A DNA stretch of 64,000 bases from an uncultured Bacilli bacterium (GTDB taxonomy: Bacteria > Bacillota_I > Bacilli_A > RF39 > UBA660), in the NCBI GenBank assembly GCA_947626125.1, contig CANQRA010000001.1, positions 8,881 through 72,880 of the forward strand, given 5' to 3'. Below are positions 7,600-21,909 of the stretch, in pieces. A program made the position numbers and the translations under genes. Each line of letters starts with the position of its first letter. Position 1 is the stretch's first letter. Under the pieces are notes generated by a model that saw only the letters and a program-made list of their open reading frames with translations, had not been told where the DNA came from and ran no database searches.

Positions 7600-7722
7600 T
7601 TATTTAGTTAATTCCTTACGTCCTTTTCTACGACGATTATTAATAATCTTTGTTCCTTTACGAGCAAAGAAACCGTGTTTTTTAGCTTTTTTAAGATTAT
7701 TTGGTTGATATGTTCTTTTCAT
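7600..7722 (-). CDS. rpmH: 50S ribosomal protein L34 (40 aa; not in ORF track because it is too short)
   Basis: Hand translation of the minus strand gives [40 protein letters not shown], a clear L34 signature. A Shine-Dalgarno-like GAGG lies upstream. Confidence 0.85.
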
Positions 7723-7754: not shown

Positions 7755-7784
7755 ATTATAATATTAATTAAGGATTGATGTCAA
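7755..7784 (-). promoter_or_regulatory. sigma-A type promoter for the rpmH-rnpA-yidC-jag operon
   Basis: On the minus strand: TTGACA (-35, 7779..7784), an 18-bp spacer, then TATAAT (-10, 7755..7760). Confidence 0.45.
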
Positions 7785-7793
7785 GAAAATTCA

Positions 7794-9119
7794 CTACCGA
7801 CTTTTCTTATTTTGTCCTAAAGATTCCTTATTTTCTCTATATTTTTGAATATCTCTATAATATTGATTAATAAGTAAGCTTCTAACATAACCTTTATTTT
7901 GGTAAATGCCCAAATTCTTTTTATCTTGCGGTACACACTTATCTAACATATCTATCCCACAAAATTCTAGGCGCCCGTTACATAAACCTAGAACAGTTGA
8001 ACCGAAACGGTAAAGACAAACAAAATCGTCATTATTCAAGTTACTAATAGCAAAAAATTCTTGAGCAAGGTACATAAACTTATATAAAGGTATCTTTACC
8101 GGAAGTTTTTCTTCTCTTACAATCTCATCAGAAACAATTTCTCCTAACCATATTTCGTATTCTTCTTCCCCAGCAATAATATATTTTACGGGCTTTCCTT
8201 CATATATATAAATATCCATGTATTGGTCAGTTATTAAATTATTTGTGACTACATCTAAAATTTTAGCCGCTAAATCATAATCAGTAAAATCTATTTTATC
8301 TAATAACCGCAGGCTTTCATAGCTGGTACCGTATCCACTACCAGTCAAAAACATTTTCACTTTATCCTTAATTAAACTAAAAATCATACTTATTTGCTTT
8401 TTAAATTTTTCATTATCGGCACTTGCCATCGCAGCATGGTATCTTTCGGTTAAATTATTTGATAATGTACTTATTTCTAAATTATAATTTTTAGCTTCCC
8501 ATTTATGATTAATATCTTCAAATAATTCTTGATAATAAATTGGAAATAAAGGCTTTAAAAGAACTTCTTGAAGTTGTCTTAATTGAATACCATTGTAATC
8601 AAGAGCTTGGGCTTTTGCCATTAATCCTTTATAAAGTGGGTAATTAATTGCCGCGATTTTAAACCTAGCATCTACTGCTTTTTTAAACTGACGAAGATAA
8701 AAAGAATCCATGCTTTCTCTATTGGGATATCTACAATTAGCCTTTATACTTTCCTTAAGTGTTGTATCTTTTAATTTTTCAATATCATCTTTTATAACAT
8801 CATAATAAGGATTATGTTTATATGACTCAACTACTCTGTTAATATCAGCTAAAAAGGTATTATTCCCTCTAAGTCTTTTTAAACTTTCATAAAATTCATT
8901 AATTCCCATATTAGCATTAATTTTAAAAGAGCCATCTGTTCCTATAAAATATTTATCAAAATAATAATTTTTAAAAGTTTTGTACCATAACCTAATTAAA
9001 GCAAAAAATTCATCAAGTATATTTTTTACTTCTGCCTTAGTATTAGCATCATCCACTTTGGTAGGAAAATTAACAATCTCTCCAACAAACACTTTTGCTA
9101 AAGAAGAAAATTCTTTCAA
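7794..9119 (-). CDS. hypothetical protein (441 aa), probably the frameshifted C-terminal portion of the upstream J-domain gene
   Basis: The ORF begins at a TTG with no Shine-Dalgarno sequence and overlaps the 9070..9411 ORF by 50 nt in the +1 frame. Its N-terminus ('VGEIVNFP...EVKNILDEFFALIRLWYKTFKN') aligns with the middle domain of the 9426..10085 paralog ('VGEYLIPS...EIDVIFLEFKNKIASWYEQFKN'). Confidence 0.5.
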   Translation of the reverse strand: MKEFSSLAKVFVGEIVNFPTKVDDANTKAEVKNILDEFFALIRLWYKTFKNYYFDKYFIGTDGSFKINANMGINEFYESLKRLRGNNTFLADINRVVESYKHNPYYDVIKDDIEKLKDTTLKESIKANCRYPNRESMDSFYLRQFKKAVDARFKIAAINYPLYKGLMAKAQALDYNGIQLRQLQEVLLKPLFPIYYQELFEDINHKWEAKNYNLEISTLSNNLTERYHAAMASADNEKFKKQISMIFSLIKDKVKMFLTGSGYGTSYESLRLLDKIDFTDYDLAAKILDVVTNNLITDQYMDIYIYEGKPVKYIIAGEEEYEIWLGEIVSDEIVREEKLPVKIPLYKFMYLAQEFFAISNLNNDDFVCLYRFGSTVLGLCNGRLEFCGIDMLDKCVPQDKKNLGIYQNKGYVRSLLINQYYRDIQKYRENKESLGQNKKSR

Positions 9120-9411
9120 AAATGATTTTTTCCTTTACTACGATTTTATAAGCTTTTAATTCTTCATCGTCAGTACTAGCATTATAAAAATTGTTATCTT
9201 TCTTTCCTTCTTTTAAAGCATTACTTAAAATTTCATATGCCAAATTTATTTTCTTTAATTTTTCGGTTGCTTCCCTTTTTTCTACTTCTGTTTTATTAAT
9301 TAAAGCATCTGGATGATATTTTTTAGCTAAAGCATAATATCTCTTTCGTAATTCACCCTCAGTATAATTATTATTTAGTCCTAATATTTTTAAGGCATCA
9401 CCATGATTCAT
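9070..9411 (-). CDS. J-domain (DnaJ N-terminal domain) protein, truncated; likely the 5' part of a frameshifted gene
   Basis: J-domain with an HPD motif: 'KRYYALAKKYHPDALINKTEVEKREATEKLKKINLAYEILS'. It ends within the A6/T5 homopolymer region at 9118..9131. Confidence 0.6.
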   Translation of the reverse strand: MNHGDALKILGLNNNYTEGELRKRYYALAKKYHPDALINKTEVEKREATEKLKKINLAYEILSNALKEGKKDNNFYNASTDDEELKAYKIVVKEKIIFERIFFFSKSVCWRDC

Positions 9412-9425
9412 TTCTAACCCCTTTG

Positions 9426-10085
9426 TTATAAACTTTTTAATTTTTCAATGCATCGTCTTCTTATTGTATAATTGCAATATGCATGATATCTACTTTTTAA
9501 CTTTGTATAAAATTTTCCAAATGGCTCATCAGCACTAATTTCAAAATTCGTATTTTCCCCCATTGGATGATTGGTAAGGAAAGAATTTTTAAACTGTTCA
9601 TACCAACTTGCTATTTTATTTTTAAATTCTAGAAATATAACATCTATTTCATCAATACTAGTCGCGGTGTTAATTTGGCCAAGATAGAACTTAACTGTAT
9701 CATTATATACATCAATAACTGATTCTAAACCAGGAAAATCATTGAAAATCGCTGCTTCACTTGGTATTAAGTATTCCCCCACAATACTTATTATTTTTTT
9801 CATGTACATTAATAATTCAACATCATTAGCATTGCTATAAGCACCATTGGTGCTGGATGAATTATTACTATTTGTTTTTCCCTCTTTTAAAGCTTTGCTT
9901 AAAACCTCATATGCCAAATTTATTTCCTTTAATTTTTCGCTTGCTTCCTTTTTTTCGGCTTCCGTTTTATTAATTAATGCATCAGGATGATATTGCCTTG
10001 CTAAAGCATAATATTTCTTTCGTAAAATATCTTCCGTGTAATCACTAAATAACCCCATTATTTTTAGAGCTTTATAAAAATTCAT
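9426..10085 (-). CDS. J-domain protein (219 aa): J-domain + low-complexity linker + helical C-terminal domain
   Basis: 'KKYYALARQYHPDALINKTEAEKKEASEKLKEINLAYEVLS' with HPD. It is a paralog of 9070..9411 with about 70% identity across the J-domain. It contains no DnaJ Zn-finger or C-terminal domain. Confidence 0.7.
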   Translation of the reverse strand: MNFYKALKIMGLFSDYTEDILRKKYYALARQYHPDALINKTEAEKKEASEKLKEINLAYEVLSKALKEGKTNSNNSSSTNGAYSNANDVELLMYMKKIISIVGEYLIPSEAAIFNDFPGLESVIDVYNDTVKFYLGQINTATSIDEIDVIFLEFKNKIASWYEQFKNSFLTNHPMGENTNFEISADEPFGKFYTKLKSRYHAYCNYTIRRRCIEKLKSL

Positions 10086-10231
10086 AGTAATCCCCCTTTT
10101 TTATTGTCTGCTATTATATAGCAATATCATCATTTCGTCAAGTAGAGCAAATTAAGGCATAAACTAAAGGTCTTGTTATTAACTATTTTTTGTGTTATAG
10201 TAGTTTTCGCTTTAAAAAAGAGGGGATAATA

Positions 10232-11545
10232 ATGGCTCATTCAATAGCAAATAATAATGATTTAATAATGCTTAATGAATTTATAGATAGCAACTTATCG
10301 GATACCATTGATTATGATTTAGCATTAGAAGAGTTATTAAAACTAAGTCTATTTATTGAAGAAAATTTATTAGCAATTAACCGCTCAACTATATATGATA
10401 TCGTCATGGATAATAGAATTTTAAATAGCATCCTAGAAACTATTGTGCAAAATATTAAAGACTATCAAGACTTAGATACTGTTAGTGCAGATGTTAATGA
10501 TAATGAAATAGCCTTTCTTTTATTAAGAGCTTATTTAATGCAAAATAACTTGATTGCCAAGGAAATGGAAGATTACATAGACCATACAGAAAGTGACTAC
10601 TACCAAACTAATAAAGAATCTAAGTTAGAAAGTATTGAATTAAGTGGAAAAACAGTGCGAAAACTAAGAAAAATGTTATTAACCGATAAAGAAAAAACAA
10701 CCGAATTAATTATTAGATATTATGCTAAAGTTATTGAAAAAAAACTTCCATCTCATGGTAATTATAACGAACTTTATCAAGAGGGATGCCTTGCTATCAT
10801 GGAAGCAATTAATCACTTTTTAAAATCAAATAAATTATTAGCAACGTATATATATGTTGCAATATCAACCTATTTTAGAGACTATAATAACAGGATGAGT
10901 AAGGCATTTGAACCCTTTGATGACATAGATGAAAATGATGTGCCTAATATATTAACGAGCTTAAAAGATGAGCCTTTTGAAGATGTTATTATTAATGAAC
11001 CACCTTTTAAATTAGAGGAATTAGTGCAACAAATTAATATTCCGGATTATAATCGGGAACTTTTGATTTATTATTTTAACAGTGATATAGAAGGTAGTAA
11101 ATTGTATGAACCATATAATACAAGTAGACAAAATTTTTATGCAAGAATAAATCATAGTCTTAGACATTTTCTAAGTGATAAAACCATCATTGAATCAATT
11201 TCTTATTTAGATGACCCCGATAAAGCTCTACAAACTATTAAAGAAAATATTAATGTTGTTGATTTAACCGTAAGTTGGCTCCATCATGATTTTGCTAATA
11301 TTGTAGCACAAGTACCTTTAACAAATTTGGAAAGAGAAATTTTATGTTATTACTATGAGTTAAATGGCTATCAAAGAAAAAATGATATGGAAATGGCTCA
11401 AATGTATGGAATAAATTATTTGAAATTAGCTAGGACAAGAATTAACGCCATGTATAAGATAATAAGTCAAAGGGTCATTCCTTATATGGATTTAGTCCCC
11501 GAATTAGATAAAAAAATAAAAGAATATGGCAAAAGTTATCGCTAA
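10232..11545 (+). CDS. divergent sigma-70 family-like protein (437 aa) with an N-terminal extension and a long insertion between regions 2 and 4
   Basis: Region-2-like segment 'ELYQEGCLAIMEAINHFLKSNKLLATYIYVAISTYFRDY' (compare DLIQEGNIGLMKAVEKF...FSTYATWWIRQAI). Region-4/HTH-like segment 'LTNLEREILCYYYELNGYQRKNDMEMAQMYGINYLKLARTRINAMYKI'. Start is at ATG 10232, preceded by Shine-Dalgarno AGAGGGGA and an extended -10 TGTTATAGT. Confidence 0.45.
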   Translation: MAHSIANNNDLIMLNEFIDSNLSDTIDYDLALEELLKLSLFIEENLLAINRSTIYDIVMDNRILNSILETIVQNIKDYQDLDTVSADVNDNEIAFLLLRAYLMQNNLIAKEMEDYIDHTESDYYQTNKESKLESIELSGKTVRKLRKMLLTDKEKTTELIIRYYAKVIEKKLPSHGNYNELYQEGCLAIMEAINHFLKSNKLLATYIYVAISTYFRDYNNRMSKAFEPFDDIDENDVPNILTSLKDEPFEDVIINEPPFKLEELVQQINIPDYNRELLIYYFNSDIEGSKLYEPYNTSRQNFYARINHSLRHFLSDKTIIESISYLDDPDKALQTIKENINVVDLTVSWLHHDFANIVAQVPLTNLEREILCYYYELNGYQRKNDMEMAQMYGINYLKLARTRINAMYKIISQRVIPYMDLVPELDKKIKEYGKSYR

Positions 11546-11667
11546 AAAGAAGAAAGAAAAAGATATTAATGAAAGAAATAATAGAAGTTCCTTTACTAAA
11601 AACTATTGGCTATATTCACAGTTATAATATACGTTATTTTGACCTAGATAATTTAAAACAAAAGACC

Positions 11668-11909
11668 TTATCCCGTTAATGTGGAAAACTAAGACACTTT
11701 ACGTTGTCTTTTTTTCTTGTCAACAAAGATATTAACATGACTTCTCTTCTTTTATCCTTGTAACAAAACTAAATATTAACTTATCAACACTTTCCACAAA
11801 AATAATTTTGCACAAAAAAGTAATAAGTTAACAAAGTTAATAAAAATTTGTTGAAATTGTGGAAAACATCATGTAATATAGGTTCTATCTAGAAAAAAGA
11901 TGTTGAAAA
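11668..11909. promoter_or_regulatory. DnaA-box cluster upstream of dnaA (oriC left part / dnaA promoter region)
   Basis: Near-consensus 9-mers match TTATCCACA/TGTGGATAA. TGTGGAAAA occurs at 11680..11688 and 11858..11866 (8/9 each). TTATCCCGT 11668..11676, TTATCCTTG 11752..11760, TTATCAACA 11781..11789, TTTCCACAA 11790..11798 and TGTTGAAAA 11901..11909 are 7/9 matches. Confidence 0.6.
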
Positions 11910-12005
11910 CTATGTTAATAACTTTAAAACAAAACTTTTTTCTTGTAATAAAAATACATTTAAGTTAAAATGAAATTGGGATATATATGAAATGTGGGGT
12001 GAGGT

Positions 12006-13361
12006 ATGAAAACACATGAATTATTTAAACAATTTTTGCAAGAAATAGAGAACGAAGTTAGTCCAGCAACTTATACAGCCTGGTTTCATGACTTAGAACT
12101 CATTTCCATGGATGACAAAGAAATAACTATTAAAGTACCTCTTCCTGTTCATAAACAAATACTTAAAACAACTTATTTAGATTTAATTGATAATACCATG
12201 TTTTCTTTAACGGGTATTAACTATGATTTTAAATTCTATACTGAAGATGAATATAACGATAAAATAAATATTGAAGCTGTTAAAGATGAGAATAATGATA
12301 GTCAAATAATCTCTTGGAATACTAATTTAAAACCTAATTTGAATTTTGATAACTATGTCGTTGGTGAATCCAATAGACTAGCCTTTATATCGGCGATGAA
12401 TGTGGCTCAATCCCCTGGAACTATTCGCAATCCCTTATTTATATATGGTAAAAGTGGAACGGGGAAAACCCATTTAATGAATGCGATAGGTAATTATATC
12501 AAAGACCATTCCAAAAAACGAGTTTTATATACCACAAGTGGAGACTTCCGTGATGAATATGTCGATATGTCCAAATTAGATAAAGGAAAAGATGCCATTG
12601 AATATGCGAATAATTTTAAAAATAAATATCGCAATGTTGATGTATTAATTATTGATGATATTCAGTTATTGGTAGATTCTCCGATGACCCAACAAGAATT
12701 CTTCCATACTTTTGAAGCCCTCCATCAAGCTAATAAACAAATTATTATTTCTAGTGACCGTTCCCCAGATGATTTAAAAAAGATTGAGGAAAGACTAAGG
12801 AGTCGTTTTAAATGGGGATTACCTGTTGATATCCATCCACCTGATTTTGAACTAAGATGTGAGATTATTAAGCAGAAAATTCAAAATACTAGTATTAAAG
12901 ACCGCGTTAGTAAAGATGTTATTGAATATATTGCCAATGGTTGTCCGAGTGATATAAGACATATTGAAGGCACCATTAATCGTTTACTTGTTTATACTGC
13001 TTTATATACACCAGAATATATTGATTTAGATTTTGCGATTGAAGCTTGTAAAGACTCGATTGATAACAATATATATCAAGAAAATACGATTTCGCATATT
13101 CAAAAAGTGGTCGCCGATTTCTATAAAATAACAATCGAAGATTTAAAAAGCAAAAAAAGAAGTAATAATATTGCGTGGCCAAGACACATTGCCATGTACT
13201 TATGCCGGGTTGAAACCGAAGAAAACTTAGTAAAGATTGGTTTTGAATTTGGCGGAAGAGACCATTCAACCGTTGTTGCTAGTTGTGAAAAAATTAAAGA
13301 AGAGTTACAACATAATGAAACGCTTAATAATACTATCAAAGAAATAAAATCAAAGTTATAA
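12006..13361 (+). CDS. dnaA: chromosomal replication initiator protein DnaA
   Basis: AAA+ Walker A 'GKSGTGKTHL', box VII and C-terminal DNA-binding domain 'IAMYLCRVET...GGRDHSTV'. Length 451 aa. Confidence 0.97.
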   Translation: MKTHELFKQFLQEIENEVSPATYTAWFHDLELISMDDKEITIKVPLPVHKQILKTTYLDLIDNTMFSLTGINYDFKFYTEDEYNDKINIEAVKDENNDSQIISWNTNLKPNLNFDNYVVGESNRLAFISAMNVAQSPGTIRNPLFIYGKSGTGKTHLMNAIGNYIKDHSKKRVLYTTSGDFRDEYVDMSKLDKGKDAIEYANNFKNKYRNVDVLIIDDIQLLVDSPMTQQEFFHTFEALHQANKQIIISSDRSPDDLKKIEERLRSRFKWGLPVDIHPPDFELRCEIIKQKIQNTSIKDRVSKDVIEYIANGCPSDIRHIEGTINRLLVYTALYTPEYIDLDFAIEACKDSIDNNIYQENTISHIQKVVADFYKITIEDLKSKKRSNNIAWPRHIAMYLCRVETEENLVKIGFEFGGRDHSTVVASCEKIKEELQHNETLNNTIKEIKSKL

Positions 13362-13373
13362 ATGTTTAAAAAA

Positions 13374-13500
13374 ATGTTGATAAGTAATTAGTTTTCCACA
13401 GACATTTTTTAAGGATATATAAAGGTTAAATAAAGTTTTCCACATTATTAACAGTATAATAAATAATAATAACTAAAATAATAAAAAAAGAAAGAAGGAA
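13374..13500. promoter_or_regulatory. oriC right part: DnaA boxes plus an AT-rich DNA unwinding element between dnaA and dnaN
   Basis: TGTTGATAA at 13374..13382 and TTTTCCACA at 13392..13400 and 13436..13444 are each 8/9 matches. They are followed by a ~55-bp stretch that is more than 90% A+T (13445..13500). Confidence 0.55.
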
Positions 13501-14749: not shown

Positions 14750-15196
14750 ATGCGAAATTACATAATTAAAGATAGTACAATAGCTATTTTAAAGCAAGAA
14801 AAGAAGACAATTATTTATAATGTTGAAAACTTTGTAGTTTTCAACAAAAGTATTAAAAAAATCCTTGATGAAAATTGTATGTTGCATGGGAGTAATTTAA
14901 ATGGCCGCATTAAAAGTGTGCAAAAAATTCTTAATGTTAAGTATCGCGTACCTATTTTAATAAGTGAGAAAGAAAATATTATTCTTCTTCCGATGAATAG
15001 TATGCGTGACAAAGAATGTTTATATATTGTGGCAAATAAAATAATCGATTATACGGAAAATGAGGATTATTTAGAAATCAAATGTATAAATAATCAAATA
15101 TTTAAGACCAAAATATCAAAATATAGTTTTGAAAAAATGATTATAAATATGATGAAATTAAATAATTACTTAAAATGGGAAAATTTTGTAAATTAG
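14750..15196 (+). CDS. ComK-family (competence transcription factor-like) protein, 148 aa
   Basis: Collinear with B. subtilis ComK as I recall it. 'STIAILKQE' aligns with 'ATIAVLPEE'. 'HGSNLNGRIKSVQKILNVKYRVPILISEKENIILLPMNS' aligns with 'FGSSYAGRKAGTYEVTKISHKPPIMVDPSNQIFLFPTLS'. 'KISKYSFEKMIINMMKL' aligns with 'PISYNSFENQVYRTAWL'. An extended -10 TGTTATAGT lies upstream at about 14707. Confidence 0.5.
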   Translation: MRNYIIKDSTIAILKQEKKTIIYNVENFVVFNKSIKKILDENCMLHGSNLNGRIKSVQKILNVKYRVPILISEKENIILLPMNSMRDKECLYIVANKIIDYTENEDYLEIKCINNQIFKTKISKYSFEKMIINMMKLNNYLKWENFVN

Positions 15197-20837: not shown

Positions 20838-21817
20838 TGTCTTTTTTGTTGAAAAATTATTTCCCGGGAAATAATTGGTTTACATAATATTTTTATTTTT
20901 TGCTAAAAGAATAATTTAAAATTTAGACAGTGTCAAAATTCTTTCTCTAATGTTTCACGTGAAACATTAGAGAAAAATTGCTACATAATTTTATATTCTT
21001 TTCTTTTAAAAGTTAAACAATTTATGTATTATGAATTTGGTAAACGTCATTATATTAATATATTTAAATATATCCCTCGAAATAATTGGACTACATAATA
21101 TATAATTTATATCTCTGATAAGTTAACTTTAAAAATATCAATAAATGTTTCATACATTACTGATAAGCCATAATAAAGTAAGTTTAATTTTTTGATATAT
21201 TTAACAAATTTTTACCCGTCGCTTAAACTTATTCGTACTCCATTAATTAGTAACGCTTTATGTTTCACGTGAAACATTAGAGAAAAGCAAATCATTTTTT
21301 AAAATTAACTTTTACAATTTTTTATACGATGTATTCACACATAAACAAAAGCATATTATTAGTATATTATCAATTGTTTAATCCAATAATATGTAATATT
21401 TCCCGGGAAATAATTGGTTTACATAATATTTTATTTGTACATATAATATGTATGTGCTAAACTTTTAGCAAGGCGCATCTCTCCTATATCGAGCTTTTAA
21501 TATAGGTTTGAACGCTCCATATTACAGCACGCGAGATGTTATGTTACTATTTATATTTAAATGTTACTTAAAGCAATGTTTCACGTGAAACATTGCTGGT
21601 GTAAAACATTATTCAAGCATTTAGCATTACTCTTAATTAATTTTAATTATACATAATTATTTATTTAATTCTATGATTTATATTGTATGTTTCACGTGAA
21701 ACTATAAAAATTTTGACACTGTCAAAATTATTTCCCGGGAAATAATTGGTTTACATAATATTTTTGTATTTAAAAAAGTATGTTGAAAAAGTAACTTTTA
21801 TATGTTATTATCTTATT
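20838..21817. repeat. ORF-free ~1-kb region densely populated with three families of repeated palindromic motifs
   Basis: Motif R1 (~38 bp) is 'ATTATTTCCCGGGAAATAATTGGTTTACATAATATTTT' at 20866..20903, 21397..21434 and 21727..21765, with a degenerate copy at 21072..21102. Motif R2 is the palindrome 'TGTTTCACGTGAAACAT' at about 20950, 21260 (both extended to a 26-bp identical repeat), 21575 and 21687. Motif R3 is 'TTTTGACACTGTCAAAATT' or 'GACAGTGTCAAAATT' at 20927 and 21708. The ends of the region show a mirrored order: R1-R3-R2 on the left and R2-R3-R1 on the right. Confidence 0.7.
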
Positions 21818-21895
21818 GCACAACAAATATATCGTAACCTGGTCAGAGTTGGAAAACAGCAGCCACATCGGTCCCTATTTGTGTGTGCTTTTTTT
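21818..21895 (+). ncRNA. ffs: candidate small (4.5S-type) signal recognition particle RNA
   Basis: 'CCUGGUCAGAGUUGGAAAACAGCAGCCACAUCGG' resembles SRP domain IV (GGUCAG..., a GGAA tetraloop closing a GUU/AAC helix, and AGCAGCCA). A terminal stem GCACAACAAATA/TATTTGTGTGTGC closes it, followed by a U-run. Its position just upstream of tadA-dnaX matches the B. subtilis scr neighbourhood. Confidence 0.5.
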
Positions 21896-21909
21896 GAGGA
21901 ACTAAATTT

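Follow-up and report, generated by a model that had tools for sequence, protein, structure and literature searches.

Probable clade-specific accessory cluster of J-domain and sigma-like genes between rpmH and a bipartite oriC in an uncultured gut Bacilli bacterium

A 64,000-nt stretch of DNA from an uncultured Bacilli bacterium (contig CANQRA010000001.1 of assembly GCA_947626125.1; the whole stretch is called the window here) was analysed for a group of genes located between rpmH and dnaA, namely two J-domain genes and a divergently transcribed sigma-70-like gene. The left third of the window consisted of a Firmicute origin region of textbook type, the genes of which were verified by Pfam. The minus-strand block comprised rsmG, mnmG, mnmE, jag/khpB, yidC, rnpA, and rpmH, while the plus-strand block comprised dnaA, dnaN, a ComK-like open reading frame (ORF), recF, and gyrB. 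The cumulative guanine-cytosine (GC) skew of the window turned at approximately 10 kb. Between the start of rpmH (7722) and the start of dnaA (12006) lay 4283 nt, against a spacing of a few hundred nt in most Firmicutes (PMC7561715). The gap was occupied by the two J-domain genes on the minus strand and the sigma-like gene on the plus strand, and the insertion of about 3.8 kb that an initial annotation had described as splitting the rpmH-dnaA junction was thereby borne out. The features of the region were as follows.

7600..7722, minus strand: rpmH (ribosomal protein L34), the last gene of the left-hand origin block (Pfam Ribosomal_L34, E=7.9e-15)
7755..7784, minus strand: perfect sigma-A-type promoter of rpmH, TTGACA-18-TATAAT (12/12 in a consensus scan)
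7794..9119, minus strand: C-terminal fragment of the long J gene, 441 codons, with a helical region and a beta-rich domain (no Pfam match)
9070..9411, minus strand: N-terminal fragment of the long J gene, a 113-aa ORF overlapping the former, with an HPD-containing J domain and an out-of-frame tail (Pfam DnaJ, 53.3 bits)
9426..10085, minus strand: short J paralog, 219 aa, with a J domain and the first ~120 aa of the family C-terminal region (Pfam DnaJ, 45.2 bits)
10086..10231, no strand: divergent J/sigma control region, 146 nt (promoter scan)
10141..10113, minus strand: J promoter, TTGACG-17-TATAAT (consensus scan)
10173..10201, plus strand: sigma promoter, TTGTTA-17-TATAGT, with extended -10 TGTG (consensus scan)
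10232..11545, plus strand: degenerate sigma-like gene, 437 aa, assigned to the RpoD lineage by family profile, distant relatives, and alignment
11569..11676, plus strand: remnant (last 37 codons) of a gene for a 369-aa single-pass membrane protein (tblastn, 84% identity over 37 aa)
11612..11921, no strand: upstream DnaA-box cluster (oriC part 1) and dnaA promoter region (nine boxes with at most two mismatches, three of them with at most one)
12006..13361, plus strand: dnaA (Pfam Bac_DnaA, Bac_DnaA_C, and DnaA_N)
13375..13470, no strand: downstream DnaA boxes (oriC part 2), followed by an AT-rich TAA-repeat run (four boxes in 144 nt)

The scan for DnaA boxes revealed that the origin itself was ordinary. 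The upstream cluster was enriched relative to the window background (Poisson P=8e-4), as was the downstream set of four boxes (13375-13453; P=7e-3). With up to two mismatches allowed, no box was present in the gap between rpmH and the J genes, and a single one, hence no cluster, in the divergent J/sigma intergenic region. In the segment 13436-13470, the last two boxes of the downstream set, TTTTCCACA and TTATTAACA, abutted each other and were followed by the AT-rich TAA-repeat sequence; this arrangement of the dnaA-dnaN spacer resembles a DnaA-trio and DNA unwinding element, and the unwinding site is likely placed there. The oriC is of the ordinary bipartite Firmicute type, with boxes flanking dnaA within the order rnpA-rpmH-dnaA-dnaN. 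It shares with the bipartite origins of Bacillus subtilis and Clostridioides difficile the flanking genes, the box clusters on both sides of dnaA, and the AT-rich trio-like run beyond the downstream boxes, and differs from them by approximately 3.9 kb of extra genes from rpmH to the upstream boxes (PMC7561715). A comparable exception is found in C. tetani E88, in which an uncharacterised gene lies upstream of dnaA (PMC7561715). The initial annotation had regarded the DnaA-box cluster (placed at 11668..11909) as displaced, a view that could not be maintained: the cluster lies directly upstream of dnaA, which is its normal place. The boxes are unmoved relative to dnaA, the displaced element is rpmH, and the extra DNA lies between the two.

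The same layout could be found in one close relative, represented by two Logan contigs of one sample (SRR29273034), L015 and L004, joined by a 30-nt overlap. It carried the end of rpmH, a J gene of 545 codons, a J gene of 233 codons, the divergent sigma-like gene, and then the DnaA boxes, and its genes had approximately 78% DNA identity to those of the window. The upstream DnaA-box and dnaA promoter region (11572-11980 against L004 2484-2895) was 92.7% identical between the two genomes, compared with only about 78% in the adjoining coding genes (synonymous divergence, dS, 0.2-1.1), and oriC part 1 is therefore under strong constraint.

Linkage of the J and sigma families was seen only in the window and this relative. 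The two families were unlinked in L001-L003, L005, L006, L011-L014, L016, L017, and L021, and the linkage across independent genomes that marks a conserved module was not found among them. Unlinked occurrence in relatives, which the initial annotation had named as an outcome that would refute its dedicated J/sigma module at the origin, was thus observed and spoke against such a module. Sigma orthologs with 42%, 35%, and 28% identity occupied a conserved site in metagenome-assembled genomes (MAGs) of rabbit-gut Bacilli, in the order 332-aa membrane protein, 76-aa protein, 154-aa lipoprotein-like protein, sigma, convergent cotF, adh_short, and Met-gamma-lyase, while the J arrays of rabbit-gut Bacilli MAGs adjoined pheT/pheS. 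One MAG, GCA_947601485.1, contained both families on different contigs. None of the neighbours from these alternative sigma and J sites was present in the window. Because the chromosomal sites are conserved across 28-42% protein identity, the sigma and J loci appear to be vertically inherited. Contig L016, which carries three J genes, was considered as a part of the close relative's genome and rejected, its pheT end being near-identical to that of a rabbit-gut MAG. At some of the rabbit-gut MAG loci (L003 1364-6489; L006 57-5215), the sigma gene was preceded further upstream by genes for a cell-wall hydrolase of SpoIID+CHAP type and the coupling protein VirD4/TraG, together with a small ORF of lipoprotein-like character; this group suggests the remnant of a conjugative element near that locus.

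Both J domains exceeded the gathering score of Pfam DnaJ (PF00226; 27.8 bits), in agreement with the initial annotation. The HPD motif was present in both (KYHPDAL and QYHPDAL), alignment of the family revealed Y32, P34, and D35 to be invariant, and a Pfam J-domain match was obtained in all eight of eight family members; the J-domain fold was likewise recognised. The features of class-A/B DnaJ proteins (Gly/Phe linker, CXXCXGXG zinc finger, and C-terminal domains) were missing; neither DnaJ_CXXCXGXG nor DnaJ_C had a Pfam match in the window J proteins, and the score against TIGR02349 was 44.6 bits, compared with a cutoff of 377. The two J domains were 72% identical to each other, and the region behind them was common to both genes with 31% identity over 78 aa (E=2e-7). 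A 238-nt direct repeat of 78% identity was the mark of the tandem duplication. The C-terminal domain that the initial annotation had assigned to both genes is shared in part, the short paralog having only its first stretch.

What had been described as a tandem pair proved to be one naturally short gene and one broken gene. All homologs of the 441-aa ORF were 543-572 aa long with an N-terminal J domain. DNA alignment against L015, which encodes an intact 545-aa ortholog (P0006), revealed a 23-nt deletion in the long J gene at ~9124/9125; because of this deletion, the overlapping ORFs 9070-9411 and 7794-9119 are the halves of a single broken gene of ~540 aa (9411-7794). A homopolymer sequencing error was considered as the cause of the frameshift and rejected in favour of the 23-nt deletion. 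A second record, L025, was 100% identical across the deletion site and possibly stems from the same source data. The 441-aa fragment had about 75-76% aa identity to P0006, with a ratio of nonsynonymous to synonymous divergence (dN/dS) of 0.57. The ortholog of the short paralog in the close relative was also short (233 aa; 50% identity, dN/dS 0.34). The two genes had diverged unevenly, with 50% protein identity and dS 1.15 for the short paralog (9426-10085 against L015 15-716) and 76-81% and dS ~0.22 for the long gene, a pattern that suggests gene conversion or recombination among the J paralogs.

The J proteins constitute a new, very rare class-C family (6 clusters in 5.8 billion proteins) with an HPD J domain and a domain of ~450 aa without a known fold. 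The AlphaFold2 (AF2) model of P0006 (predicted local distance difference test, pLDDT, 76) consisted of the J domain, a long helical region (79-396), a beta-rich domain (406-492), and terminal helices, and the ~450-aa C-terminal region had no Pfam, PDB, or BFVD match. The family always occurred in tandem arrays, with three copies in L011-L014, three in L016, and at least two in L007, and the paralogs in these arrays of 2-3 copies diverge fast. A metagenome scan seeded with the family relied on J-domain patterns and yielded nothing but J proteins of no closer relationship (L023 and L024). Like other class-C (type III) J proteins, such as Shewanella AtcJ, Escherichia coli DjlA/DjlB/DjlC, and Rki of phage RB43, the window proteins have a stand-alone HPD J domain and a private C-terminal region, and lack the Gly/Phe region, the zinc finger, and the DnaJ C-terminal domains. 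By analogy with these, the private region presumably confers client specificity. The window family differs from them in its tandem arrays of 2-3 paralogs and in a C-terminal region matching none of the three databases. The top NCBIfam match of the window J domain was the AtcJ model, at 52.6 bits and thus well under the 150-bit cutoff that an ortholog would reach; the window J proteins are orthologous neither to AtcJ nor to DjlA or DnaJ.

The sigma ORF was open from 10190, and its 437 aa were counted from the ATG at 10232, which had a GAGGGG ribosome-binding site. From the N- to the C-terminus, the predicted protein comprised a family-specific N-domain, a region 1.2-like segment (RAYLMQNN), a region 2 with QEG and degenerate regions 2.3/2.4, an acidic linker, a degenerate region 4 (~aa 265-320), a conserved YLDDPD, and a second region 4-like helix-turn-helix (HTH; ~aa 355-415). 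The QEG of region 2.2 was conserved, while the W-W of region 2.3 and the R-x-I-R-x-P of region 2.4 were unrecognisable. The initial annotation had staked the sigma assignment on the Pfam models of regions 2 and 4. Taken alone, the window protein fell short of them, with 19.1 bits for Sigma70_r2 (gathering score 24) and no Pfam match to region 4; the evidence of the family profile was judged to outweigh this result, regions 2 and 4 of the window protein itself being putative, and the description of the gene as a highly unusual sigma-like gene stood. The profile matched SigA chains of the PDB over regions 1.2-2 and region 4 (E=1e-6), and its residues 345-415 aligned to region 4 of many bona fide sigma factors.

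The sigma family was tiny (4 clusters in 5.8 billion proteins), and an exhaustive hidden Markov model search with it revealed 379 relatives. Among the best 40 of these, Pfam recognised region 4 in 39, region 2 in 35, region 3 in 28, and region 1.2 in 18, and these 40 scored highest on the RpoD/RpoS models, under the equivalog cutoffs. The intermediate relatives P0020-P0024 passed the Pfam gathering score for region 4, three of them (P0021, P0022, and P0024) also for region 2, and they kept a region 3-like segment of ~50 aa that was lost from the window protein and its orthologs (P0001-P0004). On these comparisons the window protein can be classed as a genuine but degenerate RpoD-lineage sigma-70 homolog. 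Compared with the L004 ortholog, the gene had a dN/dS of 0.35 over its whole length and of 0.20 within the N-domain; it is under purifying selection yet fast-evolving. The second region 4-like HTH was the sole confidently modelled part of the protein (AF2 pLDDT ~80-86). A Foldseek search of the sigma model against the PDB returned nothing significant, the top matches being mostly SigA with E>0.07, and was not used as evidence. Among the relatives, P0023 (589 aa, on an ENA contig of 3 kb) was an unusual poly-region 4 protein with ~7 tandem Sigma70_r4 repeats (Pfam region 4, 190 bits, seven stretches).

With Group 1/2 (RpoD/SigA-like) factors the window sigma-like protein shares the SigA profile match over regions 1.2-2 and 4, the QEG of region 2.2, and distant relatives that carry regions 1.2, 2, 3, and 4 and score best on RpoD/RpoS models. 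It differs from them in falling below the Pfam thresholds for regions 2 and 4, in lacking region 3 and recognisable 2.3/2.4 signatures, and in having an extra C-terminal region 4-like HTH and the family-specific N-domain. With Group 4 (extracytoplasmic function, ECF) factors it shares an effective two-module architecture of regions 2 and 4 without region 3, but it differs in its RpoD-lineage origin and scored only 15 bits on TIGR02937. In this architecture the protein converges on the sigma factors built of regions 2 and 4, and it can be regarded as a new degenerate variant inside the RpoD lineage.

A further likeness to ECF systems was found in the close relative, where the sigma gene was followed by a 369-aa ORF (L004 1485-2594) that overlapped the sigma stop codon (ATGA) and had its own GGAGGA site. 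It contained one predicted transmembrane segment (aa ~30-55) and had no family match. In the window, BLASTN junctions against the relative revealed that ~989 bp of this gene were deleted. The translationally coupled pair is like a sigma/anti-sigma arrangement of the kind formed by ECF factors with single-pass anti-sigma proteins, although the membrane protein differs from these in that its cytoplasmic part amounts to just ~30 residues and nothing in it matches an anti-sigma domain; the window, moreover, has lost the gene. Where the pair is complete, as in the relative, control of the sigma-like protein would more likely lie with this coupled membrane protein.

Promoter analysis revealed ordinary sigma-A-type elements. 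The promoter of rpmH was located in the 71-nt gap past the J gene stop. Across all loci, the J genes were preceded by a strong promoter of the canonical form TTGACA-17-TAnnnT and by a conserved leader. The promoter and leader were near-identical despite ~35% protein identity, reading TTGACA-17-TGGTAAAGT, then AACAATCGTTTAT..AAAGGGGG (L011 3240-3312, L016 2250-2320, L007 270-338, and L016 490-561), and this may represent a conserved element of the 5' leader. The sigma genes had an extended -10 (TGTGnTATAGT) conserved across 42% protein identity, and the TGTGTTATAGT element was kept upstream of the 42%-identical sigma orthologs. A private promoter class linking the J and sigma genes was not seen across the loci compared.

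Two further observations were made in the window. A ComK-family ORF (14750-15196, plus strand; Pfam ComK, E=3.6e-19) was located between dnaN and recF, a position filled by yaaA in B. subtilis, and a competence-regulator-like gene within the dnaA-dnaN-recF-gyrB block is unusual. The sole Rfam match was a bacterial small signal recognition particle RNA (21809-21904, plus strand; RF00169, 52.7 bits), and neither a tRNA nor an rRNA was detected over the whole 64 kb.

The most probable account of the locus, held with some reservation, is that of a clade-specific accessory cluster that settled between rpmH and a canonical bipartite oriC in one sublineage and is partly decaying, the J/sigma adjacency being recent and local and not a conserved unit. 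The dN/dS values of 0.34-0.57 in the cluster are typical of fast-evolving accessory genes. The dedicated module of the initial annotation, in which J proteins would deliver the sigma-like protein to DnaK and control its stability or activity, with divergent transcription co-regulating the genes, is considered unlikely. It would accommodate the retention of the divergent pair and its shared control region in the window and the ~78%-identical relative, and the presence of both families in one and the same narrow clade, in one case within a single MAG. Moreover, it has precedents in sigma-32 control by DnaK/DnaJ and in the stabilisation of sigma-32 by Rki, a phage J protein (PMC3486835). These systems offer the only established logic tying a J protein to a sigma factor, but no genetic linkage is needed in them, the linkage in the window is not conserved, and the sigma-like protein is not RpoH-like, so that the likeness rests on functional analogy. 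None of the more distant genomes examined had the families linked, arrays of 2-3 J genes occurred without a nearby sigma gene, the window has a long J gene reduced to a pseudogene beside an intact sigma gene, the relative has its sigma gene coupled to a membrane protein, which is the more conventional regulator position, and no special promoter is common to the J and sigma genes. In a more specific form, the J paralogs would be adaptors handing the region 3-less sigma (or pseudo-sigma) to DnaK, the divergent pair forming a chaperone-gated switch beside oriC; this is a slimmer chance still, and if it were true, the gene dosage of the pair would follow replication initiation.

Eroding cargo of an element resembling an integrative and conjugative element (ICE), inserted beside oriC, is also improbable as an explanation. 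The fast evolution of the cluster genes, the inactivation of two of the four in the window, and the orphan-like nature of both families are in line with such cargo, as is the setting of the sigma gene in rabbit-gut MAGs, where the VirD4/TraG coupling protein and the SpoIID+CHAP hydrolase are encoded 2 kb upstream of it. Against this, no integrase, relaxase, phage family, type IV secretion gene, tRNA, or flanking or att-like repeat was found in or near the window cluster, the GC content of the insert (27.8%) and its GC content at third codon positions were the same as in its neighbours (27.9% GC in the flanks), and the sigma-like protein had no relative on viral contigs. PADLOC and PHROGs analysis of the window revealed no defence system and only J-domain and weak sigma matches. 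The marks of a prophage or integrative element (integrase, att sites, tRNA, composition shift, phage or conjugation genes) were thus missing from the window, and the prophage cargo that the initial annotation had named as a possible pitfall did not materialise. Elsewhere, the sigma genes and J arrays sit at the conserved chromosomal sites described above, which also counts against cargo. That the sigma-like HTH protein, the J proteins, or both act on replication initiation or dnaA expression is very improbable. The position between rpmH and the DnaA boxes, the sigma gene reading toward the dnaA promoter region, and the discovery of DnaK/DnaJ through phage lambda replication would fit such a role, but in other genomes the orthologs lie at a great distance from dnaA, the intergenic regions of the cluster have no DnaA-box cluster, conservation of the DnaA-box region is independent of that of the genes, and the cluster is decaying. 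Several points weigh against the reading as a local accessory cluster as well. Two families unlinked elsewhere form a divergent pair kept in two genomes, and selection for co-regulation could account for this; both have the same highly restricted distribution, with 4 clusters of the sigma family and 6 of the J family among 5.8 billion proteins. For the sigma-like protein as a whole, the AF2 model was poor (pLDDT 50, from four sequences), the direction of the rearrangement is read from the conserved alternative sites only, and the function of every component is inferred.

Under the accessory-cluster reading, a clade-specific J pair and an RpoD-derived sigma factor with a coupled membrane partner would have been assembled between rpmH and oriC in one sublineage. 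Later, two of the four genes would have been inactivated in the window genome, the long J gene by the 23-nt deletion and the membrane-protein gene by the larger one, with oriC function unaltered by the cluster. The cluster genes would be fired from ordinary sigma-A-type promoters. Judging from the HPD motif and the J fold, the J domain would trigger ATP hydrolysis by DnaK, and the family-specific C-terminal region would select the client or location. The conserved region 2.2 (QEG) suggests that the sigma-like protein would bind core RNA polymerase and direct or modulate transcription.

The host clade is one of uncultured, spore-forming gut Bacilli of ~27% GC. If the best-supported reading holds, the rpmH-dnaA junction tolerates several kb of accessory genes on the rpmH side with the DnaA-box clusters undisturbed, and this under-sampled clade carries a new class-C J family with a ~450-aa domain in tandem arrays, together with an RpoD-derived sigma factor without region 3 and with a second region 4-like HTH. 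The genomic evidence does not make the J and sigma proteins a coupled system and has no bearing on how origins work. The novelty lies in the protein families, both of which are candidates for new DnaK-client targeting and unusual transcription control.

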